64,000 nt of DNA from the sequence record MK310183. The stretch is one strand, 5' to 3'. The position numbers and the translations under genes are program-made. Source of the stretch: Phage NC-B. Each line of letters begins with the position of its first letter. Position 1 is the stretch's first letter. Shown piece by piece: positions 7,355 to 63,992 of the stretch. The notes under the pieces were generated by a model. That model worked only from the letters and a program-made list of their open reading frames with translations, made no database searches and was not told where the DNA came from.

Positions 7355-8413
7355 ATGGCAAATCCAACTTTATTTGTATCTTACGACCAGAATGGTAAAA
7401 AACTTTCTTTTGCTAACTGGATTTCTGTCCTGTCTCCGCAAGACACTCCGTTTGTGTCTATGACTGGTAAAGAGTCTATCAATCAGACTATTTTCAGCTG
7501 GCAGACCGATGCTCTGGCGAGCGTAGATGCTAACAACGCCCACGTCGAAGGTTCTCGTGCTGAAGACGGCGAAATGAAACCGACTGTAATCAAGTCCAAC
7601 GTTACCCAAATTCTGCGTAAAGTTGTTCGTGTTTCTGATACTGCTAACACCACCGCTAACTACGGTCGTGGTCGTGAACTTATGTATCAGCTGGAGAAGA
7701 AAGGTAAAGAGATTAAACGTGACCTCGAGAAAATCTTGCTGTCCGGTCAGGCTCGTACCGATATTCTGGCAGACCAGTATCTGACCAACTCTGCAACTGA
7801 TCCTGCTGTTGTAGGTCAGAATGATACCTCAGCTGCTCGTAAGACTGGTGCTTTCCAGTTCCTGTGTGCACACAACGGTGTTGCTGGTGGTGTTGTTAAG
7901 AAAGAAGATGGTCCTGCTGACCCGGATACTGGTGCAGTAACTGTTAAAGTTGCACAGAATGCTTCTAACCCGACTACGAACATCGGTTTTGATGAAGCTG
8001 ATATCTTTGATATGACTCTGCAACTGTATACCGCCGGTTCTGAAGCAGACATCATCATGATTAACCCTGCTCACGCTAGTATCTTTGCTAAGCTTCAGGA
8101 AAACTCTGTTGGTTCTCGTCAGCGTATCTTTGAGAACACCAAACAGTTCATCTATGAAGTTAACAGCATCACTGACCCACTGGGCCAGAGCTATAAAATC
8201 ATCGTTAACCGTTGGATGCCTGCTGATGCAGTTTACTTCTTCCGCAGCTCTGACTGGACTCAGATGGTTCTTCGTGCTCCGAAACGTACTGAACTGGCGA
8301 AAGATGGTTCTTACGAGAAATGGATGATCGAAATGGAAGTTGGTCTGCGTCACCGCAACCCATATGCTTCCGGTGTACTGTTCACTGCTGCGGGAAAGGT
8401 GGAAGCGGCGTAA
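7355..8413 (+). CDS. major capsid protein (short form)
   Basis: 352 aa ORF after scaffold, strong AGGAG SD, stop TAA 8411-8413. Confidence 0.85.
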   Translation: MANPTLFVSYDQNGKKLSFANWISVLSPQDTPFVSMTGKESINQTIFSWQTDALASVDANNAHVEGSRAEDGEMKPTVIKSNVTQILRKVVRVSDTANTTANYGRGRELMYQLEKKGKEIKRDLEKILLSGQARTDILADQYLTNSATDPAVVGQNDTSAARKTGAFQFLCAHNGVAGGVVKKEDGPADPDTGAVTVKVAQNASNPTTNIGFDEADIFDMTLQLYTAGSEADIIMINPAHASIFAKLQENSVGSRQRIFENTKQFIYEVNSITDPLGQSYKIIVNRWMPADAVYFFRSSDWTQMVLRAPKRTELAKDGSYEKWMIEMEVGLRHRNPYASGVLFTAAGKVEAA

Positions 8414-9192
8414 CAGTAGATTCCGTAACTGTTAGTCCTTCGTCGGTTGCAAGCCTTCCGACGGGGGCTACTCAGCAGTTTACAGCTACAGCAGAAATGA
8501 GCGACGGCTCCACAAGCACAACCGGATTTAATTGGTCCGTTGAGGGCGGTGGGGCTGTTTCTGTTTCTGGGCTATATACTGCACCGAGTACGTCGCAAGA
8601 AACCCCAGCAACTATTACGGCTATTAAAGGTGGTAAGTCAGGTACTGCTACAGTTCTATCTGTTTTTGAACCTGCTACTATTGAAGCCAAAGCTAACATC
8701 TCGGGTAAAGTAGGTGGAAGCACCACAGCTTTTACTACAATGTTTACAGCAACTAACTCTTCAGCAGAAGATTATTCTTTTGTTGTATCTCCGACGTCAG
8801 CAGGAACCGTTAGTGCCGCAGGAGTTTTAACTTTAAGTAATGATGCAACTGGCACAGTTACTGTTAAAGCAACTCATAAAACTCAGTCAGGTGTTGAAGC
8901 TACTATAACCTTTACAGGTGTTGTTGCTAAAGCAGCTATTACTGGAAAAACCGTCACTGGTAAGGTTGGTGGTGATACTATTACGTTTGCTGAGTTATTT
9001 ACAGCAACTAACTCTTCAGCAGAAGATTACAACTTCGTATCAAGTCCTCCTGAAATGACTTCATCTATCGATGAGAGCACTGGTCTTGTTACCTTGGCTG
9101 CTGGCGCTACAGGTGATATCACAATTACTGCTACTCACAAAACACAAACGTCTGTGACAGCAACTGCTACGATTACGGTGGTATCAGAGTAA
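7355..9192 (+). CDS. major capsid protein long form (capsid fused to three Ig-like Big_2-type domains via -1 frameshift at 8392-8398)
   Basis: -1 frame ORF 8320..9192 has no independent SD; contains tandem repeats ...FTATNSSAEDY...TVKATHKTQ... Confidence 0.55.
8392..8398 (+). other. -1 programmed ribosomal frameshift slippery heptamer G_GGA_AAG
   Basis: X_XXY_YYZ heptamer 5 codons before the capsid stop; the -1 frame is open from here to 9192 and encodes Ig-like domains. Confidence 0.6.
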
Positions 9193-9295: not shown

Positions 9296-9326
9296 AAAGC
9301 CGCCTTCGGGCGGCTTTTCTCATTTT
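9296..9326 (+). terminator. rho-independent terminator
   Basis: GCCGCC-TTCG-GGCGGC then TTTTCTCATTTT. Confidence 0.8.
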
Positions 9327-9390
9327 AAGACCCTTATAAGGAGATATGTAATGTATTCTCTTTGTCTATACACAACTAGGAGGACAAGTT

Positions 9391-12967: not shown

Positions 12968-15199
12968 ATGTCTAGAGAGTTAATGCCCAAATCTGGGATA
13001 ATGATGCCTCACGTGGTAGTTACTAGAGATGCCGCAGTAGTGGGTGTATCTACTGTAGATGGGGCCGCTGGTGCTATCAACTTAACAGAAAAATACCTTC
13101 AGAAGTCTGACGCTGAAGCAACCTATCAAACGAAAGCAGAAGGGGCTACTAAGCAATATGTAACCGACGCTATCAACCCCATTATGACAAATGCTCTTTT
13201 TAAAGATGACCCCTTTGTTAATAATGACACACCTATTCGCTCTGGCGGTGGTAATGGTGTTGAATCGGTAGATATGATTAAAGTCACCCCTGAGAACACC
13301 ATCAAACTAGGGAGCTATGCTTCTTCTGTTCAGGGGGTTGAGATTCATTCTGCTGGTCGTCTTCAGGTTGTTGATCAGAACGATTCTGGAGTCGAAACTA
13401 AATATCCGGTATACTCCAAAAGATATCGCCCAGAAGTTGAGGATTTACCTTTCGCTTCAATTGGCTCCTATGTTAAAGACTCCAAAGGACGCACTATTGG
13501 TGTAACTCGTACTGGTATCAACTCTGATATCAAACAGCTCACACAGAAAGTTACTTTCACTCAACCAGTAACTGTCCCTGATGCAGTTGGTGATTATGAT
13601 GCGGTTACTTTGAGACAGCTTCGAAACAGTGGTGGCGGTTCTGGTGGTCCTACCATGAGCGGTATCTCTAACTTCGGAATTGGCGACTTTCATTTACGTG
13701 ACAGCCGTGCTTTCATCCCAGCTTTTGAGGTAGTGTCTGATGGGCAGCTTTTGAATCGTGCTGACTACCCAGATTTATGGGCTTATGCACAACTGCTATC
13801 TCCAATCGAAGACTCTCTTTGGTTGAGCGATTGGTCGCAGCGAGGTAGATATTCCAAAGGAGACGGAACAACAACTTTCCGTGTTCCCGATAGGAACGGG
13901 GTTCAGAGTGGTTCTATTAAGTCTTTATTTGCTAGAGGTGACGGTGGCAACTCAGCTAACAACGGAGAGGTTAGACAATCTTCCATTCCTAATATTACTG
14001 GTAAGATTGGTTTTCATGGAAGTGGTGGTGATAACTCGGGTACAGTTTTGGCGAATGGTAGCGGTGCTTTTTCAGTGTCTCAGACAATACCTAGATATTT
14101 AAGCGGTGCAACAATAGTAGCCGCTGGGGCTAGTTCATACGGAGAAGCTAACCTTAATGCGTCTACTGTTAACCCTGTTTATGGTAGGTATCCTGAACTG
14201 GCTGATGAAGTCTTACCTCGCAATTTTACAGGTGTCTGGACTATTCGAGCACACGGTGGATTTACTGCTGCTAACACTTCTTGGTCTGTTATTAACAGTG
14301 ATGCTACAGTGACACCTGACGTGTATGCGAAAGGTGGTTTAATATCATCTGAATATAAAGTATCAGGGGTTGTTAGAGGGTCTGCTACTTTCCAATCGTC
14401 ATACAGGTTAATGAATGATGGAAAGTCTGAAGCATTTGGTGATATCGATGTTAAGACTTCCGAAGGTGGTCTTGGTCATTACTCTTTTAATGAAAAAGGA
14501 AGGCTACAGATAACTAACAGTGGTCCTGATGCTGCTGGTACTTCAGTTTCACTGAAGGGGGTTAATCGAGGCTGGAATGACATACAATTAGACCCCGGAT
14601 ACTCAAGAGAGACCACAGGAGGTGGGATTAACGTTATTAGTGATAATCAGGTTCGAGATAAAATCACAACTGGTATTAACATCTTCTCCTCAATAGACAC
14701 CGGATATCCTACCAAGACTGGTTTTGGGGCATACTCTCCTGGTTCAGATGATTTCGCCAAAGGTTTAATTTATGTCAGTGGGGATGGTGGATTTTTCTCT
14801 CGTTACTTCTTCGACCACTTTGGACAGATTAATGGTACAAATAGAGATGGTCAATTTAGTTATACGAAAAATGGACCATCAGACGAAAGAATAAAACGTG
14901 AGATTAGAGATATTTCCCCAGAGAAAGCCATTAGTGTTATTAAGGGTTTAAATTTCAAATCTTTTATATACACTAATGATGAACAAGAAAGAGTTCGCCG
15001 TGGGGTTATTGCCCAACAGGCAGAGAAAGTGGAACCTCTTTATGTTAAAACTCGAAAATACCCAGGAATGAAGGAAGGTGATCCAGAGATCGAGCAGAAA
15101 GAGCTAGACACTACTCCAATGCTTTTAGATACCATGCAGGTTGTTCAAGATCTGCTGAAGCGTATTGAAGTTCTAGAAGCGAAGTTAGCAGAGAAGTGA
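12968..15199 (+). CDS. tail fibre/tailspike with C-terminal intramolecular chaperone (peptidase S74-like) domain
   Basis: C-terminus PSDERIKREIRDISPEKAISVIKGL...RGVIAQQAEKVEPLY then coiled coil, matching auto-cleaving chaperone domains of phage fibres. Confidence 0.75.
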   Translation: MSRELMPKSGIMMPHVVVTRDAAVVGVSTVDGAAGAINLTEKYLQKSDAEATYQTKAEGATKQYVTDAINPIMTNALFKDDPFVNNDTPIRSGGGNGVESVDMIKVTPENTIKLGSYASSVQGVEIHSAGRLQVVDQNDSGVETKYPVYSKRYRPEVEDLPFASIGSYVKDSKGRTIGVTRTGINSDIKQLTQKVTFTQPVTVPDAVGDYDAVTLRQLRNSGGGSGGPTMSGISNFGIGDFHLRDSRAFIPAFEVVSDGQLLNRADYPDLWAYAQLLSPIEDSLWLSDWSQRGRYSKGDGTTTFRVPDRNGVQSGSIKSLFARGDGGNSANNGEVRQSSIPNITGKIGFHGSGGDNSGTVLANGSGAFSVSQTIPRYLSGATIVAAGASSYGEANLNASTVNPVYGRYPELADEVLPRNFTGVWTIRAHGGFTAANTSWSVINSDATVTPDVYAKGGLISSEYKVSGVVRGSATFQSSYRLMNDGKSEAFGDIDVKTSEGGLGHYSFNEKGRLQITNSGPDAAGTSVSLKGVNRGWNDIQLDPGYSRETTGGGINVISDNQVRDKITTGINIFSSIDTGYPTKTGFGAYSPGSDDFAKGLIYVSGDGGFFSRYFFDHFGQINGTNRDGQFSYTKNGPSDERIKREIRDISPEKAISVIKGLNFKSFIYTNDEQERVRRGVIAQQAEKVEPLYVKTRKYPGMKEGDPEIEQKELDTTPMLLDTMQVVQDLLKRIEVLEAKLAEK

Positions 15200-15202
15200 G
15201 AT

Positions 15203-15225
15203 AAGCCCCTTCGGGGGCTTTTAGG
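15203..15225 (+). terminator. rho-independent terminator
   Basis: AGCCCC-TTCG-GGGGCT then TTTTA. Confidence 0.7.
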
Positions 15226-15288
15226 AGTGAAACTGGTGAATAAGTAATGAAACTACTATATCCAAAAGGAAAATGAAAGGAGAAGAAA

Positions 15289-15507
15289 ATGAAAATGATG
15301 AAACAGGTAACTTATGGTCTAGCTTGCTTAGGGACAGGTTTTGTGATTTCCACAGCAGTACCTGTAAATGCAGTAGGCTCTCATTCTATTATAGAAGCTC
15401 CTGTAGAGAAGCTTAGTTCTCAATGTAAACAAAGGACCATTCAAAATAATTTGGTTGTTATTTGCCCAGACGCTCAATCTTCAGCTCTGAGAAAAATTCT
15501 TCCTTAA
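15289..15507 (+). CDS. small membrane/secreted protein, holin candidate
   Basis: 72 aa, N-terminal hydrophobic segment VTYGLACLGTGFVISTAVPV, strong AAAGGAG SD, immediately upstream of lysozyme. Confidence 0.35.
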   Translation: MKMMKQVTYGLACLGTGFVISTAVPVNAVGSHSIIEAPVEKLSSQCKQRTIQNNLVVICPDAQSSALRKILP

Positions 15508-15540
15508 TTGACCTAAAATAACAACAAAAGGAGGTCAAAG

Positions 15541-16032
15541 ATGGACGCTATCGCATTGCCGCCTGTACAGATGAGCCTAAGTCCGGCTGGTATGGAGTTT
15601 ATCATGAAGCATGAAGGCATGAGAACTAAAGCCTATAAAGACTCCGCTGGAATCTGGACTATATGTGTAGGGGCTACGCGCGATATGAATGGGTATCCAG
15701 TAAGACAAGGATTAACGTATTCTATAGAGGATTGTCTAGCTCTGCTAGATAGAGACACACAAGACTCTGTTCGTGCTACTCAGAAAAACATAAGAGTTCC
15801 TATGCTAGCTCATGAATTTGATGCTGTCACTTCTTTCAACTTTAATGTTGGTGGTGGTGCTTTGTCAACTTCAAAACTTAGGAAAGTGATCAACGGAGAT
15901 GTGAAGGGTGATGTTTACTCAGAGTTCTTACGTTGGGATAAGATAACTGTTAAAGGTGTAAAACAGCAGAGTCCGGGGCTTCACAATCGTAGGGTTGCAG
16001 AAGCAGACCTATACACCACAGGAAAATATTAA
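15541..16032 (+). CDS. lysozyme (glycoside hydrolase family 24, T4-lysozyme-like), likely endolysin
   Basis: catalytic-region motif HEGMRTKAYKDSAGIWTICVGAT. Confidence 0.85.
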   Translation: MDAIALPPVQMSLSPAGMEFIMKHEGMRTKAYKDSAGIWTICVGATRDMNGYPVRQGLTYSIEDCLALLDRDTQDSVRATQKNIRVPMLAHEFDAVTSFNFNVGGGALSTSKLRKVINGDVKGDVYSEFLRWDKITVKGVKQQSPGLHNRRVAEADLYTTGKY

Positions 16033-16044
16033 TGGAGGTGCCTT

Positions 16045-16848
16045 TTGGCTATCGAAACAACTGCGGTAGTAACTACCGACTTAAACCCTCTGTACCCACG
16101 GGACAGGGATTATCTTTATGAAGGGGCTGCCCAGATACGACTGGTCAAACAAGTATTAATTAACACCTTTCCTAACATCACAGAGCCAGTTCAACTTGAC
16201 TCAGATTCTTTCAACATTCTAGCAAACAAGGTCTCCTTTACTGGAGATTCTATGGATGTTGGAGGTTTGATGATCAAAAACTTAACTCCGGGAACAGGAG
16301 ACAAAGACGCTGTAACCAAAGGTCAGATGGAAGCTTTCATGTTGAATTGGATGCAGAATAAACTATACCGTATTGGTGCTTACTACATCACTGAAGAAGA
16401 TATCAACCCCGGAGATTCTAGCTCTCTTGGTTTTGGTTCTTGGGCTAAAGTAACTGGTGTTATTATGGGTACTGGTGTTGTTAACCCTGATGGATCTGTT
16501 CCTAATGCTCAGCGTGTTGAATTCCAAGCAGGTGGCACAGGAGGTCGAGTATTCAACACAATCCGTGCTGACAATATGCCTCTTACTACAATCAATGGTT
16601 CCAGTTTTCAAGTTAGTTCTTATTCTCACTCACATAATATCACGATGGGTCGTGGAGATGCTAGCGGTCACAACAGCAGTCCTAATTGGTATAGTCCGGG
16701 TGGTGGTTATACTCAGGTAACTGATACTAACACTCACTCTCACTCGATTACAGGTTCTGTTAGTTTTGGACGTGATGATGTATCGAGACAACCTATCAAC
16801 ACTTTGCCGCCTTTCAGAGCAGCGCATATCTGGAGACGTATTAGCTAA
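16045..16848 (+). CDS. tail fibre protein (short)
   Basis: DAVTKGQ motif, Gly-rich, paired His motifs HSHNIT / HSHSIT typical of fibre tips. Confidence 0.55.
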   Translation: MAIETTAVVTTDLNPLYPRDRDYLYEGAAQIRLVKQVLINTFPNITEPVQLDSDSFNILANKVSFTGDSMDVGGLMIKNLTPGTGDKDAVTKGQMEAFMLNWMQNKLYRIGAYYITEEDINPGDSSSLGFGSWAKVTGVIMGTGVVNPDGSVPNAQRVEFQAGGTGGRVFNTIRADNMPLTTINGSSFQVSSYSHSHNITMGRGDASGHNSSPNWYSPGGGYTQVTDTNTHSHSITGSVSFGRDDVSRQPINTLPPFRAAHIWRRIS

Positions 16849-16857
16849 GGAGGAACT

Positions 16858-19800
16858 ATGGCGCTTTATCCAATAAAATCTTTAGGGGCTGTAGGGGTTA
16901 TTGCTGACCAAGCTCCGACTGATTTAGCACCTAATGCTTTCACTAATGCTATCAATGCCCGCTTTGTAGAGCAAAGAGTTTTTAAGACGGGGGGCAATGC
17001 CCCTCTTTCTTATGTAGAAGAAGATAAAGAGATTACACCACTTTCTTTTATATCAATGCCTTTTGACTACTATAGTGCAGGTAATAGCTTTCTGATTGTT
17101 GGTACAGACAAAAAGCTATACAAGCTAACAGATGAAAGTTTGACAGATATTAGCCGAAAGGTTGCTACTGTCACAAAAAGAGCTTCCGCTTCTATTAAGA
17201 TATATCCGGTTGTTTCTCAGATTGTTCCTAAAGAAACTTCTATTTCAATGAATTTCAATCAAACTAAAGCCTTGGAAGTTTCTATTCTTCCTGAAGATGC
17301 TAATAACACAGCTTTAGTTTGGGAGGTTAGTAATTCTTCTTATGGTAAAGTAGAAGCTGACACCGAGAACCCTAAAACTGCAACTTTGACGTCTTATGAA
17401 AAAGAAGGGAATTTAGTAGTTACTGTATCAACAGCTGATAAATCTATTAGTGCTCAGATTGCAGTAAACATCATAGATGGTGATTCTGGTATCTTCTTAA
17501 GTCAGGATACAATAACTGTCCGCAAAGGTGGTAACACAACGCTAACTGCTGTTACTGGAAAAACTCCTGTAACTTGGGTCTCTAGTAATGCTTCTGTTGT
17601 GTCTGTAACACCTAATGCTAATACACTGACAGCTACTTTGTCTGCTAATGGTGAGGGTACTGTAACAATAACTGCTGATAACGGAACTAAGAGTGCTTCT
17701 TGTCAAGTTACTGTTATACCTCAGATAGACAGTATCACTCTGAGTCAGACAAGCGTTCAAATGAGCAGGGGTACTCAGTATGTTTTAACTGCTACGGTTA
17801 ATCCTTCAGATGCTCCCAATAAAAGCATAACTTGGACTTCCTCTAATCCTACCATTGCCACAGTTTCTGGAAATAGTACAGAAGCGGTAATAACAGGGTT
17901 ACTAGCTGGGTTTACTGAAATCACAGCTGTTACTCAAGAGGGTGATAGATCAGCAACCTGTACAGTGAGAGTTGATTTAGCTGGGAGAATGATGCGAACT
18001 TCTGCAATGGCTTTATCAGAACCTGTTGTAGATTCTATACAAGAAGAAGAAACCAATAATACTCCTATCGAATCAGAAGAGGTTTTATATTTTGTTAATG
18101 AGCCATCTGGAGTTGATACCTCAGGAATGTATGAAGGTAACAACTTCTATGATTACTCAAACGTCAACGATATGGAAGGTTTTGCACGAGCTGCACTCAT
18201 GTCCAGCGATACTCCGTTGCAATCTTTATCACTAGATATCATCGATGCCTCTCTTGATGTTGGGGAAGATATTGTAATTACAGCCAATGCTTTGCCTGAG
18301 GGAGAGTATTTCTATCAGTGGACAGTGGACAAAGCAGGATATGTTTCAACCACATCTACTACCGGGAAATCTCTAAAACTGACAGCTATTCGTAAAGGTG
18401 AGATCAAAGTTACTTGTACTGCTAGTCAAATGACTCAGAAAGATTATGATGCTTTTGACGACTATCCTTGGTATCACACCATAATCTCTAACTGTGCAGT
18501 GGCTACCACTCACTATGAAACACCACAGGTCAAAGAGTTTGAATCTGAGTATTTCGTAGATCTTCCGGGATGGGGTGAGCAAACAGTCGTTGATAATGAT
18601 GGCAACCCTTCTGTTAAGAAATTTAACTGGAAGTGTGAGCGTATTCGTGCATTCAACAACAGACTTTTTGCTCTGAATATGAGGGAATCTAATGCATCTG
18701 GTGTAACTACTCACTACCCTCTAAGACTTCGGTGGTCGAATTTCGCTAACGAAAACAAAGCTCCATCTCTTTGGGATGATTATGCTTATGATCGTTTAAC
18801 AACTTCAGACCTATCAGCAAACATCGTTGGTCAAACTGAGGCTTTGGAAAATGGGTACGCTGGGTATATAGATTTAGCAGATTCTAACGGAAGCTTGATT
18901 GATGTACTTCCTCTGAAAGATTACCTTTTTGTTTACACGGAGTTCGAAACCTACATTGGCTCTCCAACCAATAACACATATCAGCCCCTTATGTTTAAGA
19001 AGCTGTTTAATGACTCTGGCATACTTGCTCCTGAGTGTGCAGTTGAAGTCGAAGGTGGACACTTCGTAGTAACTCAAAATGATGTGATCTTACATAATGG
19101 TGCATCTAAAAAATCTATAGCATCTAACCGAGTCAAGAATCTTCTCATTAATGAGATCTGTCTAGTAAACCCTCTAGCTACTAGAGTTCACCTACACCAA
19201 GACAAGAAAGAGGTTTGGGTTTTATATGTAGGTCCGGGAGAGCCTAAAGAGAGTTTTGCTTGTAATAAAGCCGCTGTTTGGAATTATGAGTTTGACACTT
19301 GGTCTTTCCGTACAATACCATATGCTCAGTGTATTGGGTTAGTCGATCCACCAGTTCTTGAGAGAGGTCCAATCTGGGCAGATTTTCAAGAGATCACTTG
19401 GGATGATCCCTCTATTAACCAATTAGTCTGGAGAAAGGATGCTAATAACTTCCGTCAAAGGATTACAATAGTTGGCTCTTTCCTGAAGGGATTCTATCAA
19501 GTGGATGTTGGTGCTCTGGACTACATCTATGATAGAACCAATGATAGGATTATAGAAAAACCTTTAGAAATGAGGCTAGAAAGAACTGGTATTGATTTTG
19601 ATAATGTCACTAATGAGTGGAATCAAAAACATATTAATAGATTTAGACCTCAAGTTACTGGTACAGGTACTTATACTTTTGAAGTCGGTGGAAGTCAATT
19701 CTCAAACGAGTATGGACACAATCACTCAACTAAAGAGTTTAGGGTAGGCTCAGATCGTCATGTATCCGTGAGACTGAACCATCCATACCTATTCTATAAT

Positions 19801-19878
19801 GTTATAGATAATGATGTTAACAGTAATGCTTCTATGAATGGTTTAACCATAGAGTTTAGTGTTGGCGGTCGAAGATAA
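16858..19878 (+). CDS. large tail protein with tandem Ig-like (Big_2-type) domains
   Basis: 1006 aa; N-terminal third has repeated approx 85 aa Ig-like units (…TLTA…VSS/TSSN…VTV…). Confidence 0.55.
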   Translation: MALYPIKSLGAVGVIADQAPTDLAPNAFTNAINARFVEQRVFKTGGNAPLSYVEEDKEITPLSFISMPFDYYSAGNSFLIVGTDKKLYKLTDESLTDISRKVATVTKRASASIKIYPVVSQIVPKETSISMNFNQTKALEVSILPEDANNTALVWEVSNSSYGKVEADTENPKTATLTSYEKEGNLVVTVSTADKSISAQIAVNIIDGDSGIFLSQDTITVRKGGNTTLTAVTGKTPVTWVSSNASVVSVTPNANTLTATLSANGEGTVTITADNGTKSASCQVTVIPQIDSITLSQTSVQMSRGTQYVLTATVNPSDAPNKSITWTSSNPTIATVSGNSTEAVITGLLAGFTEITAVTQEGDRSATCTVRVDLAGRMMRTSAMALSEPVVDSIQEEETNNTPIESEEVLYFVNEPSGVDTSGMYEGNNFYDYSNVNDMEGFARAALMSSDTPLQSLSLDIIDASLDVGEDIVITANALPEGEYFYQWTVDKAGYVSTTSTTGKSLKLTAIRKGEIKVTCTASQMTQKDYDAFDDYPWYHTIISNCAVATTHYETPQVKEFESEYFVDLPGWGEQTVVDNDGNPSVKKFNWKCERIRAFNNRLFALNMRESNASGVTTHYPLRLRWSNFANENKAPSLWDDYAYDRLTTSDLSANIVGQTEALENGYAGYIDLADSNGSLIDVLPLKDYLFVYTEFETYIGSPTNNTYQPLMFKKLFNDSGILAPECAVEVEGGHFVVTQNDVILHNGASKKSIASNRVKNLLINEICLVNPLATRVHLHQDKKEVWVLYVGPGEPKESFACNKAAVWNYEFDTWSFRTIPYAQCIGLVDPPVLERGPIWADFQEITWDDPSINQLVWRKDANNFRQRITIVGSFLKGFYQVDVGALDYIYDRTNDRIIEKPLEMRLERTGIDFDNVTNEWNQKHINRFRPQVTGTGTYTFEVGGSQFSNEYGHNHSTKEFRVGSDRHVSVRLNHPYLFYNVIDNDVNSNASMNGLTIEFSVGGRR

Positions 19879-20895: not shown

Positions 20896-21927
20896 ATGGC
20901 TTATGGAATATGGTGTCAACCTGTAGGACCGGGACCAGCTTCCCCGGCTCCTCTCTTTATTGATAGCGGAAGTACTTTTCCTCAAATAAAAAATTCAATA
21001 AGTGGGAGTTTTAACTTTAATGGGGCTGGAAGGTCTTTTCCTATTAGCGGGTGGGATGGGAGTGGTCAGATAGTGATTGTACCAACAGGCTCTCTTTGTT
21101 GGCAATGGGAGGTTCCTCCTAACTTAATTCCTGATGTATATTGTGTCAACAATATTTATGTAGAGAATAACACATCGTTCAGGGTTACATTAAATCAAAA
21201 TCCGGGAAGCAACCCTTTGTTTGACTGTGGTTTCAATGTATATCAAATCTACCCAAGAGCTGATAGGAACTATGGAATAACCTTCTCTAATACAGCTGAT
21301 TATTTCTCTATCTCAGATGCTGGGATTGTGGGTCAATGCATCTGGGCTTGGCAAGGAACTATAAACAACGCTCTACAGATACCTGATATTGGTGGTTTCT
21401 ATATGCCTAATGCTGTAGTTTTTGCTAACTGGTCTGATGGTGGTGTTGGTTTATCTTATACATCAGGAGATAGGGTGATTCGAGTTTATCAAAACAGGTC
21501 TTATAACAATGGCAACACTAATGAAGGTGGTTCTGTGTTTGCTAGGGTTGCTGTATTTTGTAATGGTGCTGGGGTTCCTGAACACAACGGCGGTTTAAAT
21601 ATATATTCTCCCGGAACTACTCAGTGCGTATTCTCTACTTATAGGTCTCCTTTTACAGTAGACACTTTCGTAGGCTCAGCAGGTGGAAATACTGGCTTAG
21701 CTTATCCTATGATTCCTCTGTCTTCTGGAGTTGGAGCTATCAGAGGAAGTGGGAGTGGTTGGTATTATCAACAAATGCGTTCTCATACCATGTCAGGGTC
21801 TTCAATAGGAACTGGATATGGTAGATATATGTTCCAATGGTCTAACAGTTATGACTTAGGTTCTAATGCTGCTGTTAATATCTCCATCCCTGTAATCAAC
21901 GCTGCTAAGATTTTTGCAGGTTTATGA
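20896..21927 (+). CDS. virion protein (hypothetical)
   Basis: 343 aa, Gly/Asn/Ser-rich, in structural operon. Confidence 0.45.
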   Translation: MAYGIWCQPVGPGPASPAPLFIDSGSTFPQIKNSISGSFNFNGAGRSFPISGWDGSGQIVIVPTGSLCWQWEVPPNLIPDVYCVNNIYVENNTSFRVTLNQNPGSNPLFDCGFNVYQIYPRADRNYGITFSNTADYFSISDAGIVGQCIWAWQGTINNALQIPDIGGFYMPNAVVFANWSDGGVGLSYTSGDRVIRVYQNRSYNNGNTNEGGSVFARVAVFCNGAGVPEHNGGLNIYSPGTTQCVFSTYRSPFTVDTFVGSAGGNTGLAYPMIPLSSGVGAIRGSGSGWYYQQMRSHTMSGSSIGTGYGRYMFQWSNSYDLGSNAAVNISIPVINAAKIFAGL

Positions 21928-21939
21928 TAAGGAGTTTTT

Positions 21940-22737
21940 ATGACAAAAATAATGGGAGTGTCAGAGCTTGACCCTTTGGTCCAACAAGCTTCTAAGAAAT
22001 ATGGCATTCCTGCTGCTCTTATACATGCAGTGATTCAGAGAGAGTCTAATGGAAGACCTTCTGTTGAATCTGGTACAGGACCAGTAGGTTTAATGCAAAT
22101 CAGTAAGGGGTTGGCTAAAGATTATGGATATAAACTTGAAGATAGGTTAGACCCTGCAAAGAATATTGACATGGGTGCTAGATATTTAAGAGATAACCTG
22201 AAAGCTTTTGATGGTGATGTGAGGAAGGCTTTGGTGGGGTATTCAGAAGGAACTGGTGGTGCTAAGCAAATGTTTGCTGGTAAGAGAGGGTTTACACCTC
22301 AAGCTTTAGATTCAATGAATAATAAGCTGTTCCTACCATTCTTTGATAAGAATACAGCAGCGGCACAAGTGGCTAATCCTGTAGGTGCTTTGAAAGCAGT
22401 TCAGCCTGTGGACCAGTTTGATTCTAATACACTGACTAGAGAAGGTGCTGCAAACGCTCCTACTCAAGCAGAGATAGCTGCAAGCAAGGCTGGAGCTTTA
22501 GGTGGTCGTCCTGTAGAGTTTTACTCTGATGAACAATCTACTGGGGAAAATCAAAAACCTCAACAGAACTTTGGAAATGCTGTATTGGCAGCTGCTTCTA
22601 TGCTTGCAGGAAAACAGCCTAACTCTCAAACCGTACAGAGAGCACATGCCCCTACTCAAGCAGGTTCTCGATACAGTCCACAAACACAAGCCGTGCTGAG
22701 ACGTTTGTCTAGCATAGGTACTGATATTTACAGATAA
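21940..22737 (+). CDS. virion-associated lytic transglycosylase (SLT domain) protein
   Basis: SLT signature AVIQRESNGRP...GPVGLMQI with catalytic Glu. Confidence 0.8.
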   Translation: MTKIMGVSELDPLVQQASKKYGIPAALIHAVIQRESNGRPSVESGTGPVGLMQISKGLAKDYGYKLEDRLDPAKNIDMGARYLRDNLKAFDGDVRKALVGYSEGTGGAKQMFAGKRGFTPQALDSMNNKLFLPFFDKNTAAAQVANPVGALKAVQPVDQFDSNTLTREGAANAPTQAEIAASKAGALGGRPVEFYSDEQSTGENQKPQQNFGNAVLAAASMLAGKQPNSQTVQRAHAPTQAGSRYSPQTQAVLRRLSSIGTDIYR

Positions 22738-34295: not shown

Positions 34296-34520
34296 TTAAA
34301 CTACACAGAATAAATACATTGCTGTATCAGGACAAGGGATGGCTGTCTGAATGCCACTTACTTTAATCCACATATCCTCTTCAGAGTCATAATAAGCCCA
34401 ATAGGACTGATCTCCATCTACAAAGAATTTAAAGGTTCGTCCCCAAACCTGATTATTGTATTCCCATACTGCATGAAGCTGAGTAACACCTTCTGGTATT
34501 GTAAGTTCCGCTCTGATCAT
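34296..34520 (-). CDS. hypothetical protein
   Basis: 74 aa ORF; start overlaps upstream stop (ATGA). Confidence 0.45.
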   Translation of the reverse strand: MIRAELTIPEGVTQLHAVWEYNNQVWGRTFKFFVDGDQSYWAYYDSEEDMWIKVSGIQTAIPCPDTAMYLFCVV

Positions 34521-34777
34521 TGTATTCCTCTCTCCTTGAGAGCTTTAAGCAAACCGTTGTGGTTAGCGGCACAGGTTGTATAATTGTCCTGATACCACTC
34601 GAGTGTTGTTGCAAGTGCTACTCCCTGTCCACTCTGAAGTAAAGGGAGGTCTACATCACATTCAGCTTTTAGGTTTGTTGGTAAGGGCATTAGCTGCCTG
34701 CTGTTGTCGCTCGTTGAACAAGCTGACATACTCATCACTAGCACACACATTGTAAAAAACTGGCTTAGTCTTTTCAT
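34517..34777 (-). CDS. o-spanin (Rz1-like outer-membrane lipoprotein)
   Basis: signal peptide with lipobox ...VMSMSAC; Pro-rich mature part; gene overlaps i-spanin 3' end in another frame. Confidence 0.6.
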   Translation of the reverse strand: MKRLSQFFTMCVLVMSMSACSTSDNSRQLMPLPTNLKAECDVDLPLLQSGQGVALATTLEWYQDNYTTCAANHNGLLKALKERGIQ

Positions 34778-35009
34778 AATGCATCTCTTTGTAAATAGTT
34801 TCCGTGTTCTTCTTCCAGTTTGATAAACCAGTCAGAACTTTCTGAGCCACTTCATCAGCAGCCTTAGCTCTCTCAATCTCAATCTCTTGCTGTTTCTTCT
34901 CTTGGTCAAGAGCATTGCTGTCATTTCGATATTGCTCAAACTTGACACCACCAAAGAAAATCAGAGCTGTGAAGATTAAAAAACCTATATTGTTTTGAAG
35001 CTTTTCCAT
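34662..35009 (-). CDS. i-spanin (Rz-like)
   Basis: N-terminal TM (IGFLIFTALIFFGG) then coiled-coil periplasmic domain; start set to ATG 35009 (GGAG SD) because GTG 35033 lies inside the upstream terminator. Confidence 0.6.
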   Translation of the reverse strand: MEKLQNNIGFLIFTALIFFGGVKFEQYRNDSNALDQEKKQQEIEIERAKAADEVAQKVLTGLSNWKKNTETIYKEMHYEKTKPVFYNVCASDEYVSLFNERQQQAANALTNKPKS

Positions 35010-35021
35010 TTTAACTCCAAC

Positions 35022-35049
35022 GAAAAAAGCCACCCGAAGGTGGCTAAGC
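35022..35049 (-). terminator. rho-independent terminator
   Basis: minus-strand AGCCACC-UUCG-GGUGGCU then UUUUUUCG. Confidence 0.75.
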
Positions 35050-37536: not shown

Positions 37537-37669
37537 AATATCCAGAGTTGTAGTTTAGGGCGCATTTCTCGGCCTCTTCTATGTTGTCTGTGTTTAGGAT
37601 ATTAACCCAACCACCAACTTCATCAAAACCCTCTTCTTCTTCATTAAACCATACGCTGTATTTCTTCAT
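37490..37669 (-). CDS. small acidic protein (paralog of 36755..36922)
   Basis: start set to ATG 37669 (MKKYSVWF...). Confidence 0.45.
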   Translation of the reverse strand: MKKYSVWFNEEEEGFDEVGGWVNILNTDNIEEAEKCALNYNSGYYERNWEHDEILQSSL

Positions 37670-37841
37670 CTTGATAAGACTCTCCCCCAATCCTTGATGT
37701 AACAGCGACCGTCAACCCACTTGGTCTCTGATTTAAACTCTTTTGAGATTCGAGTCTCGCAATCTTCTTTACTGTAATCTCCAAGAGCATCCATCGCCCA
37801 AAGAAACAGAGCAATTACAATAGACCAGATTAGAAACTTCT

Positions 37842-38234
37842 TCATCGTATCACCAGAGGCTCTTCAGAGTATACAGGAGAGGCTATTTCTACCGGAGGTG
37901 CTGCTCTAAGGTCATTAAGCCTTACGCCCTTCAGCATACCATCTAGGTGGTCCATTTTAGGGATACCTACAGGGAAGTCATCAATCCAAACATCCACAAA
38001 GAAACCCAAGCTCTGGGTGACGGAATCCTTCTGAACACCGTTGCAAAAGATAACAGGAATATCTAGACTTGCTGCATCTGCTAGAAGCTCCTCATTTGAA
38101 TACCCATTGGGTTGAGCAAAACGATAGGTGACAATACGTACATCATGTCCACGAGATTTCATAAGACCTACAATGTGGGTCCACATCTCTTTGTCCACTG
38201 TAAAAGTATCATCATAATCTAAACCAATATTCAT
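37842..38234 (-). CDS. HAD-superfamily phosphatase (putative nucleotidase)
   Basis: N-terminal MNIGLDYDDTFT contains the DxDxT motif. Confidence 0.55.
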   Translation of the reverse strand: MNIGLDYDDTFTVDKEMWTHIVGLMKSRGHDVRIVTYRFAQPNGYSNEELLADAASLDIPVIFCNGVQKDSVTQSLGFFVDVWIDDFPVGIPKMDHLDGMLKGVRLNDLRAAPPVEIASPVYSEEPLVIR

Positions 38235-44986: not shown

Positions 44987-45172
44987 TTATAGCATACAAA
45001 GAATAATAACAAGAGGTAGTGTTATAGCAAAATGTACCAGAACAACACTACCTAGCTTGATAGCTTTAACATCCTCTTCTGCTGGGTTTTCTTTAATTGC
45101 TAAATTTCGAGCTTTATATATAACAGTACCAACTATTAACGACCACACGGCCCACACAATCAGTGAAATCAT
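44987..45172 (-). CDS. small two-TM membrane protein (paralog 1)
   Basis: MISLIVWAVWSLIVGTVIY...KENP...LGSVVLVHFAITLPLVIIL. Confidence 0.5.
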   Translation of the reverse strand: MISLIVWAVWSLIVGTVIYKARNLAIKENPAEEDVKAIKLGSVVLVHFAITLPLVIILCML

Positions 45173-45181
45173 GTCAAACCC

Positions 45182-45361
45182 TTATGCAGTCAACAGGTGG
45201 AGAAGGAAAGGAATGACAACAGAGAAAACTACCAGAGCAATGCTACCATGTTTAATAGGTTTGGCATCATTTGGATTTTCTTTAAGCATCTGTTTCTGAG
45301 CCAGATAAACGATACCACCAACAAGAATTGCCCATACAGACCACACGATTGCTGAAAACAT
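45182..45361 (-). CDS. small two-TM membrane protein (paralog 2)
   Basis: MFSAIVWSVWAILVGGIVY...KENP...HGSIALVVFSVVIPFLLHL; start set to ATG 45361. Confidence 0.5.
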   Translation of the reverse strand: MFSAIVWSVWAILVGGIVYLAQKQMLKENPNDAKPIKHGSIALVVFSVVIPFLLHLLTA

Positions 45362-45424
45362 ATTCATATCCTTATAAAGAAGTTCGCCCCACCTCTTAAA
45401 CAAAGAGACAGGGCGGAGGTTTGA

Positions 45425-52224: not shown

Positions 52225-52422
52225 TTACCTTTTGTTTAAAATTTCTTTTGTACAAGAAGTCCCGTTACACACGAGAACTGTTTGAGTTATAGAATCGACA
52301 ACTGTTACATGGCTGCCGCATTGAGTTATGATTTGACCTCTCCCTGAATCTTTAGAGATGCATTCATCAGCGGCGATTGCTGACACACTGAATAAGGAGA
52401 GGAAAAATAGAATCTTTTTCAT
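52225..52422 (-). CDS. small secreted Cys-containing protein
   Basis: signal peptide MKKILFFLSLFSVSAIAADE; 5 Cys in mature part. Confidence 0.45.
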   Translation of the reverse strand: MKKILFFLSLFSVSAIAADECISKDSGRGQIITQCGSHVTVVDSITQTVLVCNGTSCTKEILNKR

Positions 52423-61868: not shown

Positions 61869-62231
61869 TTACTCTGATACCAGAAGGCCCAGAGATTTGC
61901 GAATGTAGTCAATACTACGGAAGTTTCGATAGTTCTCTTGGAAGCGCATCTTTTCAAACTCTGCTTCCTGAAGCTCTACCTCTGCTGCTTTATATCCCGA
62001 TAAAGCTAAACTCACCACATCCTGAGGCAAGACATTACGACGACGAATAAGATATTTATTCGCTTTTAATTTACCTTGTGCACGAGCCATTTTGGCCTTT
62101 GCCGCCTTGATTCCATGAGAAATCCAAAGCAGTTGCTGCTTCAGGTCTTCCTCGTCCATACCACCTAAATCGTTTGCTACTTTATGCAGCGTAGACAGGT
62201 TTACATGGCCTTTAATGGGGCGTAGGTTCAT
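61869..62231 (-). CDS. hypothetical protein
   Basis: 120 aa basic helical ORF. Confidence 0.5.
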   Translation of the reverse strand: MNLRPIKGHVNLSTLHKVANDLGGMDEEDLKQQLLWISHGIKAAKAKMARAQGKLKANKYLIRRRNVLPQDVVSLALSGYKAAEVELQEAEFEKMRFQENYRNFRSIDYIRKSLGLLVSE

Positions 62232-62395
62232 AACTTCTCCTGTTTGTCACATTGATTGGTTAGCCAGTTGTAAGACCCTCTGTTATTCTTGCTTAACTCA
62301 CAAGATACAAAGGAAGTCACACGGGCAAACCCCACAGTGGCTAAGCAAATAAAGATTGCTGCCAATAAGAATTTAGCTTTCAACTTATTATCCAT
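62228..62395 (-). CDS. hypothetical small secreted/membrane protein (55 aa), not in ORF track
   Basis: MDNKLKAKFLLAAIFICLATVGFA signal-like N-terminus; AGAGG SD; stop TGA overlaps next ATG (ATGA). Confidence 0.35.
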   Translation of the reverse strand: MDNKLKAKFLLAAIFICLATVGFARVTSFVSCELSKNNRGSYNWLTNQCDKQEKL

Positions 62396-63761: not shown

Positions 63762-63992
63762 TCAATAGAAGGTGTGTGTAGAGTCATCGTTCATACATAA
63801 CCAAACGAAGAAGACAATCACACAGAAAGCAATAACACCGAGAATTGCAAGGATTATAGTGTTAGCTAATGTGATATCTAACACGCTTTGCAGATACATA
63901 AAGAACTGTACGACACCACATATCATTAGCACGACACCAACAACAATGAGGAGCCAATATGTGCAGAGAAGGGCTGCATCCAATAGTGACAC
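63762..63992 (-). CDS. small hydrophobic membrane protein (two predicted TM segments)
   Basis: 76 aa, LLCTYWLLIVVGVVLMICGVV and IILAILGVIAFCVIVFFVWL. Confidence 0.5.
   Translation of the reverse strand: MSLLDAALLCTYWLLIVVGVVLMICGVVQFFMYLQSVLDITLANTIILAILGVIAFCVIVFFVWLCMNDDSTHTFY

Follow-up and report, generated by a model that had tools for sequence, protein, structure and literature searches.

The window, that is, the whole 64,000-nucleotide stretch of DNA analysed here, belongs to a phiEco32/Kuravirus-like podophage of the Gordonclarkvirinae and is ~97% identical to phages SU7 and Bas87. The locus under study comprises two adjacent genes on the plus strand. One is a small ORF of 72 amino acids that encodes a putative holin (positions 15289-15507), and the other codes for a GH24 lysozyme of 163 amino acids (15541-16032). 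They are orthologs of phiEco32 gp16 and gp17 and of SU10 gp14 and gp15, respectively. A spacer of 33 nt separates them, and both ribosome binding sites are recognizable, with GGAG located 6 nt before the ATG of the small ORF and GGAGG 6 nt before the start of the lysozyme gene. Upstream of the pair lies the distal long-tail-fibre gene (12968-15199), whose 743-residue product carries a Peptidase_S74 chaperone domain. Downstream, the short-tail-fibre gene (16045-16848), with a product matching SU10 chain 7z47_I (7e-157), is followed by the gene of a Big_2 nozzle protein (16858-19878). An earlier reading made from the sequence alone had placed the lysozyme between tail-fibre genes and, ahead of it, a 72-residue protein with a single hydrophobic N-terminal segment. 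Both statements agree with the gene map.

The order fibre, small gene, lysozyme, short fibre is common to SU7, SU10 and phiEco32 and is found in all 98 phage records (98/98), as well as in the most distant metagenomic relatives. In nearly all relatives, the annotation of the pair reads "holin | endolysin". Moreover, the related phages 7-11 and GAP52 lack both genes (PMC4281155). The two genes hence behave as a fixed module, present or missing jointly across the phage group. In the Felixounavirus lysozymes, which are the nearest ones outside the family (~40% identity), no small membrane gene was found upstream. The holin/lysozyme arrangement has already been published (PMC7881722; PMC9965538; PMC12733307), and the pair represents the ordinary Kuravirus-like layout, known since the description of phiEco32 and SU10.

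The region between the long-tail-fibre gene and the pair contains two conserved elements. A terminator-like hairpin on the plus strand (15203-15222) immediately follows the fibre gene, with the stem AAGCCCC/GGGGCTT (7 bp by RNA fold), the loop TTCG and a short T tract. Because this tract is short, the hairpin was missed by a consensus terminator scan. Its conservation extends over SU7, SU10 and phiEco32 to distant metagenomic relatives, and one base pair has undergone a compensatory change from G-C to A-T. The second element, AGTAATGAAACTACTATAT (15243-15261, plus strand), is a degenerate look-alike of the promoter recognized by the phage sigma factor gp36 (tAATGTAtA; consensus taken from PMC8948821). 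It is similar to two sites with the exact consensus (35860 and 35937), and its block AAGTAATGAAnnTAnTATAT is invariant at six loci. No canonical phage-sigma promoter TAATGTATA with at most 1 mismatch was found directly upstream of the pair, the nearest ones being located at 9349 and 26485. Upstream of the pair lies a late promoter that corresponds to P13 of phiEco32, which was mapped by experiment, and the succession of a hairpin and a promoter is also seen at the validated P13 site. Judging from its sequence, the element at 15243 may function as a weak internal late promoter.

The identity of the lysozyme is clear. It matches PF00959 (Phage_lysozyme) over profile positions 2-125 of 125 (5e-31; 108 bits, the curated cut-off being 22.3) and the endolysin family phrog_7 (2.8e-46), and it is 91% identical to SU10 gp15. 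The catalytic triad E25-x8-D34-x5-T40 is found in HEGMRTKAYKDSAGIWT, and this EG...D...T motif aligns with those of the endolysins of PDB entries 8app (~1e-27) and 7m5i (3e-24). The enzyme consists of a single domain, without any structural domain. We found neither a SAR domain nor an export signal in its N-terminus, as judged by hydropathy and PDB alignment: the maximal 19-residue Kyte-Doolittle value (KD19) is 1.01, residues 7-15 include three prolines, and only ~10 residues precede the first conserved helix. The SAR lysozyme 3hde has ~13 more N-terminal residues, its alignment starting at chain residue 28 against query residue 15. A system composed of a SAR endolysin and a pinholin was considered and is ruled out by the lack of a hydrophobic N-terminus in the lysozyme. 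The "SAR-endolysin" label that GenBank gives in the case of MN03 looks wrong. By these sequence criteria, the lysozyme is a soluble, non-SAR GH24 endolysin of the T4/P22 type.

The position of this gene within the late tail operon, between two tail-fibre genes, would fit a virion enzyme that digests the wall at infection, a role that the earlier reading had proposed as an alternative to lysis. The location is the sole observation in favor of such a role, which we consider highly improbable. The SU10 ortholog was not found, even in a crude PEG preparation, in the SU10 proteome with its 17 detected late products, nor in the virion list obtained by cryo-EM and mass spectrometry (gp6, 9, 11-13, 16-18 and 20-24); the same holds for the ortholog of the small protein, gp14. 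These absences refer to SU10 proteins that are 91% (lysozyme) and 78% (small protein) identical to those of the window phage. In addition, the PDB matches include no SU10 lysozyme chain, while the neighboring short-fibre protein has one, and a single-domain enzyme of 163 residues without a structural domain is not what a virion role would lead one to expect. The virion is already equipped with a wall-degrading enzyme, namely an SLT-domain transglycosylase ejection protein (21940-22737, plus strand; PF01464, 1.5e-24; phrog_12507, 4e-156). Its SU10 ortholog, gp20, has been detected in virions and assigned to peptidoglycan degradation at entry. The virion reading is therefore unsupported, since the SU10 lysozyme is absent from the particle and the wall enzyme found there is the transglycosylase.

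The remaining lysis genes are encoded on the other arm of the genome, on the minus strand and 18.5 kb away from the lysozyme, close to the ~19 kb given in the sequence-only reading. The Rz-like i-spanin (34662-35033; phrog_1152, 1.5e-36) has an N-terminal transmembrane domain, IGFLIFTALIFFGGV. The o-spanin (34517-34777; phrog_2425, 6.7e-25) is a lipoprotein of 86 amino acids with a signal and the lipobox-like sequence MSMSAC. Both genes overlap by 116 nt and out of frame, which corresponds to the overlapped Rz/Rz1 architecture, and the phiEco32 orthologs of both spanins are catalogued in a spanin survey (PMC6139136). The lysis functions are thus dispersed, as had been noticed earlier; such dispersal is also normal for many virulent phages and was already described for this group.

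Regarding the small ORF, it is a real gene and not a chance ORF, because it is present once per record in 98 phage records and evolves under purifying selection. Compared with SU10, dN/dS amounts to 0.13 for the whole gene and to 0.03 for residues 40-72, indicating strong purifying selection. The protein shares 78% identity with SU10 gp14 and 100% with the products annotated as "holin" in Bas86, Bas87 and HC-25922. It matches the "holin" cluster phrog_11161 (1e-40), which is made of these same orthologs. Neither a Pfam family (E<=0.01; at E<=10 only chance-level matches appeared) nor an NCBIfam family was detected. Outside the phage group, no relatives were found among PDB sequences at E<=10 or in a word search of 5.8 billion proteins. 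An exhaustive profile search of 1.84 billion representative proteins added just two relatives, each encoded in this same gene neighborhood. The matches to two long repeat proteins (P0027 and P0028) in the searches with the small protein look spurious. The small protein thus appears, from these comparisons, to form an orphan family known only beside this lysozyme. We found no experimental report on this putative holin family in the literature searched; a paper on the holin and endolysin of UE-M6 deals with an unrelated system. The PHROG label is inherited annotation.

The protein starts with the n-region MKMMKQ, followed by a hydrophobic helix from about residue 7 to 29. Over 19 residues, its Kyte-Doolittle score peaks at 1.66 (1.5-2.1 across the family), values to be taken as a rough guide because this crude scan missed the i-spanin helix at its 19-residue threshold. 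The comparator sequences used for hydropathy are illustrative only. The helix is only weakly hydrophobic by this measure. The uncharged run comprises 30 residues, Gly, Ala, Ser and Thr make up 44-56% of the helix, and a crude estimate of the insertion energy is positive (+1.4 to +4.6 kcal/mol). In the family alignment, the invariant residues Y9, G10, C13, G17, S21 and A28 share one face of the helix. The end of this segment, P25-V26-N27-A28 followed by V, has the features of a signal-peptidase I site, including the n-region, an h-region of ~18 residues and a helix breaker. At the putative cleavage site, A28 (-1) is invariant, the -3 position is V or T, and the -2 position is free. Two other interpretations of the N-terminus were discarded. 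A lipoprotein reading of Y-G-L-A-C13 fails on the residue before the Cys, which is A, V, I or L in the family, and on the position of the Cys at residue 13, where only 6 uncharged residues precede it, too near the N-terminus for a lipobox. A lambda-S-like dual start (M1-K2-M3) is seen in the window phage and is not a family trait, because M3 and M4 vary (L, I, T, N, A or V in the relatives).

Residues 29-39 form a variable linker, hypervariable in the alignment, that leads to a conserved C-terminal domain defined by C46-x12-C59. Both cysteines are invariant, and the hairpin region C46-KQRTIQNNLVVI-C59 is almost so. The strongest constraint within the protein falls on residues 40-61, in this predicted periplasmic domain and not in the helix. 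An AF2 model based on a 25-sequence alignment has low confidence (pLDDT 53) and shows a helix at residues 3-23 and a hairpin at 47-51/54-58. The C-terminal part has a net charge of +2 across 44 residues and lacks the charged, hydrophilic cytoplasmic tail of the class I/II holin type. Class I and II holins typically carry a charged C-terminal tail, and class III holins are also devoid of one. Because K2 and K5 lie at the N-terminus and the invariant Cys pair at the C-terminal side, a periplasmic location is predicted for the C-terminus. Together, the helix, the signal-peptidase-like site and the Cys-x12-Cys domain are compatible with a holin that crosses the membrane once (N-in/C-out), with a periplasmic peptide made by cleavage, or with a peptide released from the membrane in the manner of SAR domains. 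No other small protein encoded by the late genes has a hydrophobic helix. Other small membrane proteins with two helices are encoded elsewhere in the genome, such as the tandem paralogs at 44987-45403.

Taken together, these data favor the holin-endolysin reading over the virion-associated one. We propose, with a probability of roughly 0.6, that the pair is the holin and endolysin module of the late tail operon and that the 72-residue protein is most likely the holin. Of the original suggestion of a holin-endolysin unit, what stands is a co-inherited module with a signal-less lysozyme and the only small membrane protein among the late genes. What does not stand as evidence is the name "holin", which is an annotation, and the signal-peptidase-like site speaks against it. 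The outcome that the sequence-only reading had set against a holin, a cleaved secreted protein without membrane retention or lysis phenotype, retains some probability because the small protein carries that site. According to the proposed mechanism, the GH24 muramidase, cytoplasmic and without a signal, would accumulate during late expression with no access to the wall on its own. The small protein would insert with its short, positively charged N-terminus on the cytoplasmic side, one helix (about residues 9-29) across the inner membrane and a small C-terminal domain, probably disulfide-stapled, in the periplasm. Oligomerization could proceed by packing of the helices through the invariant small-residue stripe G10, C13, G17, S21 and A28. 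At a set time, these helices would open the inner membrane and release the lysozyme, and the Rz/Rz1-type spanins from the other arm would then break the outer membrane. Digestion of the wall at entry would be the task of the SLT transglycosylase ejection protein, and not of the lysozyme.

Several observations count against a holin: the small protein has no curated family match, its helix is weak, and a good signal-peptidase I site precedes a hypervariable stretch. Constraint peaks in the C-terminal domain, a charged tail is missing, the AF2 pLDDT is 53, and other two-helix proteins exist in the genome.

These observations lead to a less probable explanation, which we judge unlikely on balance, namely that the 72-residue protein is exported, either through a Sec signal cleaved after A28 or as a SAR helix that leaves the membrane. 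In the periplasm, its disulfide-stapled domain would serve as a lysis-timing regulator like T4 RI, as a modulator of the lysozyme or the spanins, or as an anti-superinfection factor like T4 Spackle, and the true hole-former would be encoded elsewhere, for instance by the two-helix paralogs at 44987-45403. The n-region with K2 and K5, the h-region and P25-V26-x-A28 are consistent with export, the -1 residue being invariant and the -3 residue V or T even in relatives of ~40% identity, and the hypervariable stretch begins directly after the site. The weak hydrophobicity of the segment and its 44-56% content of Gly, Ala, Ser and Thr are as in SAR domains. In the same direction point the constraint peak at residues 40-61, where two invariant Cys flank a predicted beta-hairpin, and the third invariant Cys, C13, within the helix. 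This last feature recalls the thiol-switch arrangement of the SAR domain of P1 Lyz. Further small multi-helix membrane proteins in the genome could supply the hole. However, four invariant residues on one helix face are unusual for a mere targeting signal, and the invariance of A28 needs no signal peptidase because this residue lies on the same face as the stripe. Likewise, an uncharged run of 30 residues and an h-region of ~18 residues are at the long end for cleaved signals. The alternative holin candidates belong to the early/middle arm, have no charged tail either and adjoin no lysis gene. Finally, a signal-less endolysin needs a holin, and no other is evident among the late genes.

We regard as very unlikely that the small protein works with the adjacent fibre in receptor masking or superinfection exclusion, like T5 Llp or Cor, with its adjacency to the lysozyme being incidental. 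The gene does lie directly 3' of the distal long-tail-fibre gene, and its product looks exported and has a disulfide-type domain. However, the protein and the fibre do not covary: Bas86, Bas87 and HC-25922 have the small protein at 100% identity, whereas their DNA similarity to the window starts only at 14908, in the C-terminal chaperone part of the fibre. There is no lipobox, as C13 follows A, V, I or L and sits too near the N-terminus, and the gene co-occurs or co-disappears with the lysozyme. A more speculative idea, to which we give a minor share of credence, is that the small protein is a new minimal lysis effector or regulator, and not a conventional holin. Such an effector would combine a SAR- or signal-like helix (with an invariant Cys and a heptad small-residue stripe), a hypervariable tether and a stapled periplasmic beta-hairpin, and it would be triggered by signal-peptidase cleavage, membrane release, or thiol-disulfide exchange among the three invariant Cys. 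In that case, no smaller N-in/C-out (class III-type) holin would be known that can release a folded lysozyme, or else the protein would be a novel controller of lysis in the periplasm.

For genome annotation, the gain is small, as nearly all relatives already carry an annotation of the pair. Two small corrections emerge: the lysozyme is best not taken for a virion enzyme or a SAR endolysin, and the "holin" label is positional. The 72-residue family itself mixes features of anchored holins and exported peptides and could represent a new family of single-helix holins or a periplasmic lysis regulator. Kuravirus-like phages are often put forward as therapeutic agents against pathogenic E. coli, and the timing of lysis would depend on this putative holin.

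The closest known systems are the direct orthologs phiEco32 gp16/gp17 and SU10 gp14/gp15, which are alike in gene order, spacing, upstream hairpin and tail-gene flanks. Nothing material differs from them, and it is the receptor-binding part of the long tail fibre that varies between phages. As for the lysozyme, endolysins of the P22, R21, RrrD and FAHEc1 type (2anv, 3hde, 4zpu, 7m5i and 8app) belong to the same fold family and have the same Glu-8-Asp-5-Thr spacing, with E-values from 1e-14 to ~2e-27. Unlike that of R21, the enzyme encoded in the window has no N-terminal SAR helix; it carries a short conserved extension at its N-terminus, xxALPPVQ.

Among holins, T4 T is of class III, with one transmembrane helix, an N-in/C-out topology and a periplasmic disulfide domain. 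The 72-residue protein resembles it in its predicted topology, with an N-terminal helix and a Cys-containing outside domain, and in being paired with a soluble GH24-type lysozyme. The two proteins differ in that they share no sequence similarity, with no Pfam match above chance level even at E<=10, and in their size (218 amino acids for T, 72 here). The lysis genes of T4 are likewise scattered (PMC6139136). The cytoplasmic N-terminus of T comprises ~30 residues and its periplasmic part ~160, whereas here they would comprise ~6-8 and ~44. In T7, likewise a podophage, the holin gp17.5 has 67 amino acids and is encoded directly after the tail-fibre gene, with the muralytic enzyme and the spanins located elsewhere, so that the lysis genes are dispersed there too. 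This holin shows no sequence relationship to the 72-residue protein, has its hydrophobic segment in the middle or toward the C-terminus and not at the N-terminus, and is not encoded beside the lysin. T4 RI, SAR proteins and Sec-exported periplasmic proteins such as T4 Spackle have a weak N-terminal helix rich in Gly, Ala, Ser and Thr, an A-x-A-type site and a small periplasmic domain with a Cys pair. The features of RI and Spackle resemble those of the 72-residue protein, yet there is no sequence similarity and no T-type holin partner in this phage. Unlike RI and Spackle, the 72-residue protein displays the small-residue stripe along its helix, which suggests a function inside the membrane.

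The lysis system of Phage NC-B is, in function, a putative holin, a soluble endolysin and a two-component spanin; some of its parts lie in the late structural operon and the others in the middle-gene arm. The late part comprises two plus-strand ORFs in one frame, separated by a 33-nt spacer: a 72-aa ORF (15289-15507; GGAG 6 nt 5' of the ATG) and a 163-aa ORF for a GH24 lysozyme (15541-16032; GGAGG ahead of the start). The sequence-only reading had placed this pair between tail-fibre genes. This location is borne out, with a 743-aa tail fibre carrying a C-terminal S74 chaperone domain (12968-15199) upstream and a short tail fibre (16045-16848), almost identical to the SU10 chain in PDB 7z47, downstream; a nozzle protein with Big_2 and then a needle protein follow. 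The small upstream protein is also as described there, with 72 residues and one hydrophobic segment close to the N-terminus. The spanins lie where they had been noted, on the minus strand: an Rz-like i-spanin gene (34662-35033) overlaps an o-spanin lipoprotein ORF (34517-34777), which satisfies the definition of a two-component overlapped spanin.

The gene pair and its layout are already known and annotated. The pair region is ~97% identical to that of Escherichia phages Bas87, MLP3, SU7 and IME267 (Gordonclarkvirinae, genus Suseptimavirus), as against 78-83% for Kuravirus members, and the GenBank annotation beneath the match reads tail fiber, holin, endolysin, tail protein. A single copy of the small protein is encoded in each of 98 phage records, all of them from Escherichia/Shigella phages of the group; Bas86, Bas87 and HC-25922 carry it at 100% identity. 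DNA similarity of the long tail fibre gene to the closest phages starts only at ~14908, within the S74 chaperone part. Thus, the receptor-binding part of the fibre has been exchanged, whereas the downstream lysis pair stayed identical. The gene order is the same in phiEco32 (phi32_15 fibre, phi32_16 holin, phi32_17 endolysin, phi32_18 tail protein, with phi32_39 as the Rz-like spanin) and in SU10, and the arrangement of the pair has been given in print. The phiEco32 spanins were catalogued in a spanin survey, and T4 spanins are likewise kept apart from the T4 holin and endolysin (PMC6139136). Therefore, the dispersal of lysis functions to which the sequence-only reading drew attention is real, with the spanins on the other arm, but it was already known in this group and is not unusual among virulent phages.

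The lysozyme belongs to GH24. It matches Pfam PF00959 (5e-31) and phrog_7 'endolysin' (2.8e-46), solved endolysins score 1e-14 to 2e-27 against it with the catalytic motif aligned, and the triad E25-x8-D34-x5-T40 is located in HEGMRTKAYKDSAGIWT. The enzyme is not self-exporting, and a cytoplasmic endolysin requires something to open the inner membrane. Only ~10 residues (MDAIALPPVQ) come before the fold's first conserved helix, the best 19-residue hydropathy window (1.01) holds three prolines, and the SAR lysozyme R21 (3hde) has ~13 more N-terminal residues in the alignment. The N-terminal feature that defines a SAR endolysin is absent, which rules out this identity. The label 'SAR-endolysin' given to the ortholog of phage MN03 (GenBank MT129653) appears to be an annotation error, because a SAR domain would need a longer and less polar N-terminus. 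Outside the phage group, the nearest relatives are Felixounavirus endolysins (~40% identity; locus L007 of phage HY02, 3001-3465), whose genes likewise adjoin a tail protein gene. The phiEco32 i-spanin has been placed in one family with FelixO1-like phages (PMC6139136). A shared origin of the phiEco32-group and Felixounavirus lysis genes is hinted at.

The location among tail genes had also raised the idea that the lysozyme is a virion component, which we now regard as highly improbable. The evidence comes from SU10, a relative of Phage NC-B, whose gp15 and gp14 are 91% and 78% identical to the window proteins. For SU10, proteomics of a PEG preparation that was kept crude on purpose recovered 17 late products (CDS 3, 5, 6, 8-13, 16-18 and 20-24), and CDS14 and CDS15 were not detected in it. 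Nor do they figure in the virion defined by cryo-EM and MS, which consists of gp6, 9, 11, 12, 13, 16, 17 and 18 plus the ejection proteins gp20-24. According to the latter study, it is the transglycosylase gp20 that degrades peptidoglycan at entry; the gp20 ortholog here (21940-22737) carries an SLT domain (1.5e-24). Moreover, the lysozyme is a single domain without a structural module. Altogether, these data lead us to reject a virion-associated role. Besides gp14 and gp15, the only gp11-gp24 late-operon product missing from the SU10 virion lists is gp19. Its ortholog (20896-21927; 343 aa, phrog_1265, Pfam DUF6453) is called a 'membrane protein' in relatives, but it showed no strongly hydrophobic segment in our hydropathy scan.

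Late promoters of the phage sigma factor gp36 (consensus tAATGTAtA) were mapped experimentally upstream of phiEco32 genes 6, 13 and 26 (PMC8948821), and the corresponding matches in the window lie at 1582, 9349 and 26485. Therefore, the lysis pair is inside the late unit that begins at the adaptor gene. The stretch that separates the fibre gene from the 72-aa gene contains a conserved GC-rich hairpin (AAGCCCC-TTCG-GGGGCTT, 15203-15222), in which distant relatives show one compensatory change. About 20 nt after it comes a conserved element, AGTAATGAAnnTAnTATAT (15243-15261), which resembles a gp36 promoter in degenerate form. The same layout is found at the adaptor gene (9299-9357), where phiEco32 P13 was mapped experimentally. 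Judging from the sequence, 15203-15261 may act as an internal attenuator and transcription restart ahead of the lysis pair. Elsewhere, the major head gene (7355-8413) has a slippery heptamer, GGGAAAG (8392-8398), at its end and is overlapped in another frame by an Ig-domain ORF (8320-9192); this programmed frameshift has already been described for phiEco32 and SU10.

The 72-aa ORF is a genuine gene under purifying selection. Compared with SU10, dN/dS for the whole gene is 0.13; it is 0.16 in residues 1-28 and drops to 0.03 in residues 40-72, while the linker 29-39 is nearly saturated. Its family is an orphan: 24 clusters were found in 5.8 billion proteins, every one at least 61% identical, the sole phrog match was phrog_11161, labelled 'holin', and no relative appeared in Pfam, NCBIfam or the PDB. 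When 1.84 billion representatives were searched exhaustively with a profile, only two more distant members came to light, and these too are flanked by a tail fibre gene on one side and a GH24 lysozyme on the other. Homology to P0027, a 662-aa metagenomic repeat protein with ~11 copies of a motif KL(S/T)TDC(R)QHT(V)KFTLVFS like the core KLSSQCKQRTIQNNLVVIC of the 72-aa protein, was not accepted, as its score is probably inflated by the repeats. The family alignment has five zones: a basic n-region, MKxxKQ; a helix with Y9, G10, C13 and G17 invariant and S21 and A23 near-invariant; P25-V26-x-A28, with A28 invariant; a hypervariable stretch (29-39); and an almost frozen C-terminal domain, KLSxxC46-KQRTIQNNLVVI-C59-PD (11 of 22 columns invariant). 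AlphaFold2 modelled, at low confidence (pLDDT 53), a helix (3-23) and a beta-hairpin (47-51/54-58) whose strands are directly flanked by C46 and C59; a C46-C59 disulfide staple would suit this model. The positive N-terminus and the conserved cysteine pair argue for an N-in/C-out topology.

Three minus-strand mini-proteins of 55-65 aa (37666-37845, 52225-52422 and 62228-62395) share this general layout, an N-terminal hydrophobic or signal-like segment followed by several cysteines. The small multi-helix membrane proteins seen were the product of 63762-63992 and two tandem paralogs of 61 and 73 aa (44987-45172 and 45182-45403, minus strand; phrog_9296), each with two strongly hydrophobic helices. 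By their sequence, these paralogs could be alternative holin/antiholin-type candidates, but their genes belong to the early/middle arm and they have no charged tail.

We consider it probable (about 0.6) that the 72-aa protein is a holin. No other small protein with a hydrophobic helix is encoded among the late genes. That its gene is locked to a signal-less endolysin counts toward an anchored, oligomerising holin. In addition, G10, C13, G17, S21 and A28 fall in one 80-degree arc of the helical wheel (spacing 3-4-4-7), a helix-helix packing signature that is unexpected for a disposable targeting signal. We regard it as rather unlikely that the protein is an exported or SAR-type regulator and that another protein forms the hole, although several features fit an exported peptide: the helix is weakly hydrophobic (44-56% Gly/Ala/Ser/Thr), P-V-x-A, with V, G, I, T or D as the next residue, agrees with the -3/-1 rule with position -2 free, the hypervariable stretch starts exactly after this motif, and selection is strongest on the predicted periplasmic domain. 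The invariance of A28 does not help to choose between the two readings, since this residue is part of the small-residue face. As T4 RI illustrates, such a site can occur on an uncleaved SAR domain. A fibre-linked exclusion factor deserves little weight, because the 72-aa protein is identical while the adjacent fibre diverges.

The remaining interest is modest and concerns a lineage-restricted protein with mixed features of a holin and an exported peptide. It is a tentative, rather doubtful idea that it represents a new type of minimal holin, or of periplasmic regulator of lysis, that is switched through its cysteines. No curated holin family in Pfam or NCBIfam accommodates it, and on sequence it falls outside the T4 T family. 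T4 T itself illustrates that a large-hole holin can take the form of a single-helix N-in/C-out protein whose periplasmic domain is conserved, and in its working the 72-aa protein would most resemble a miniature class III (T4 T-like) holin.
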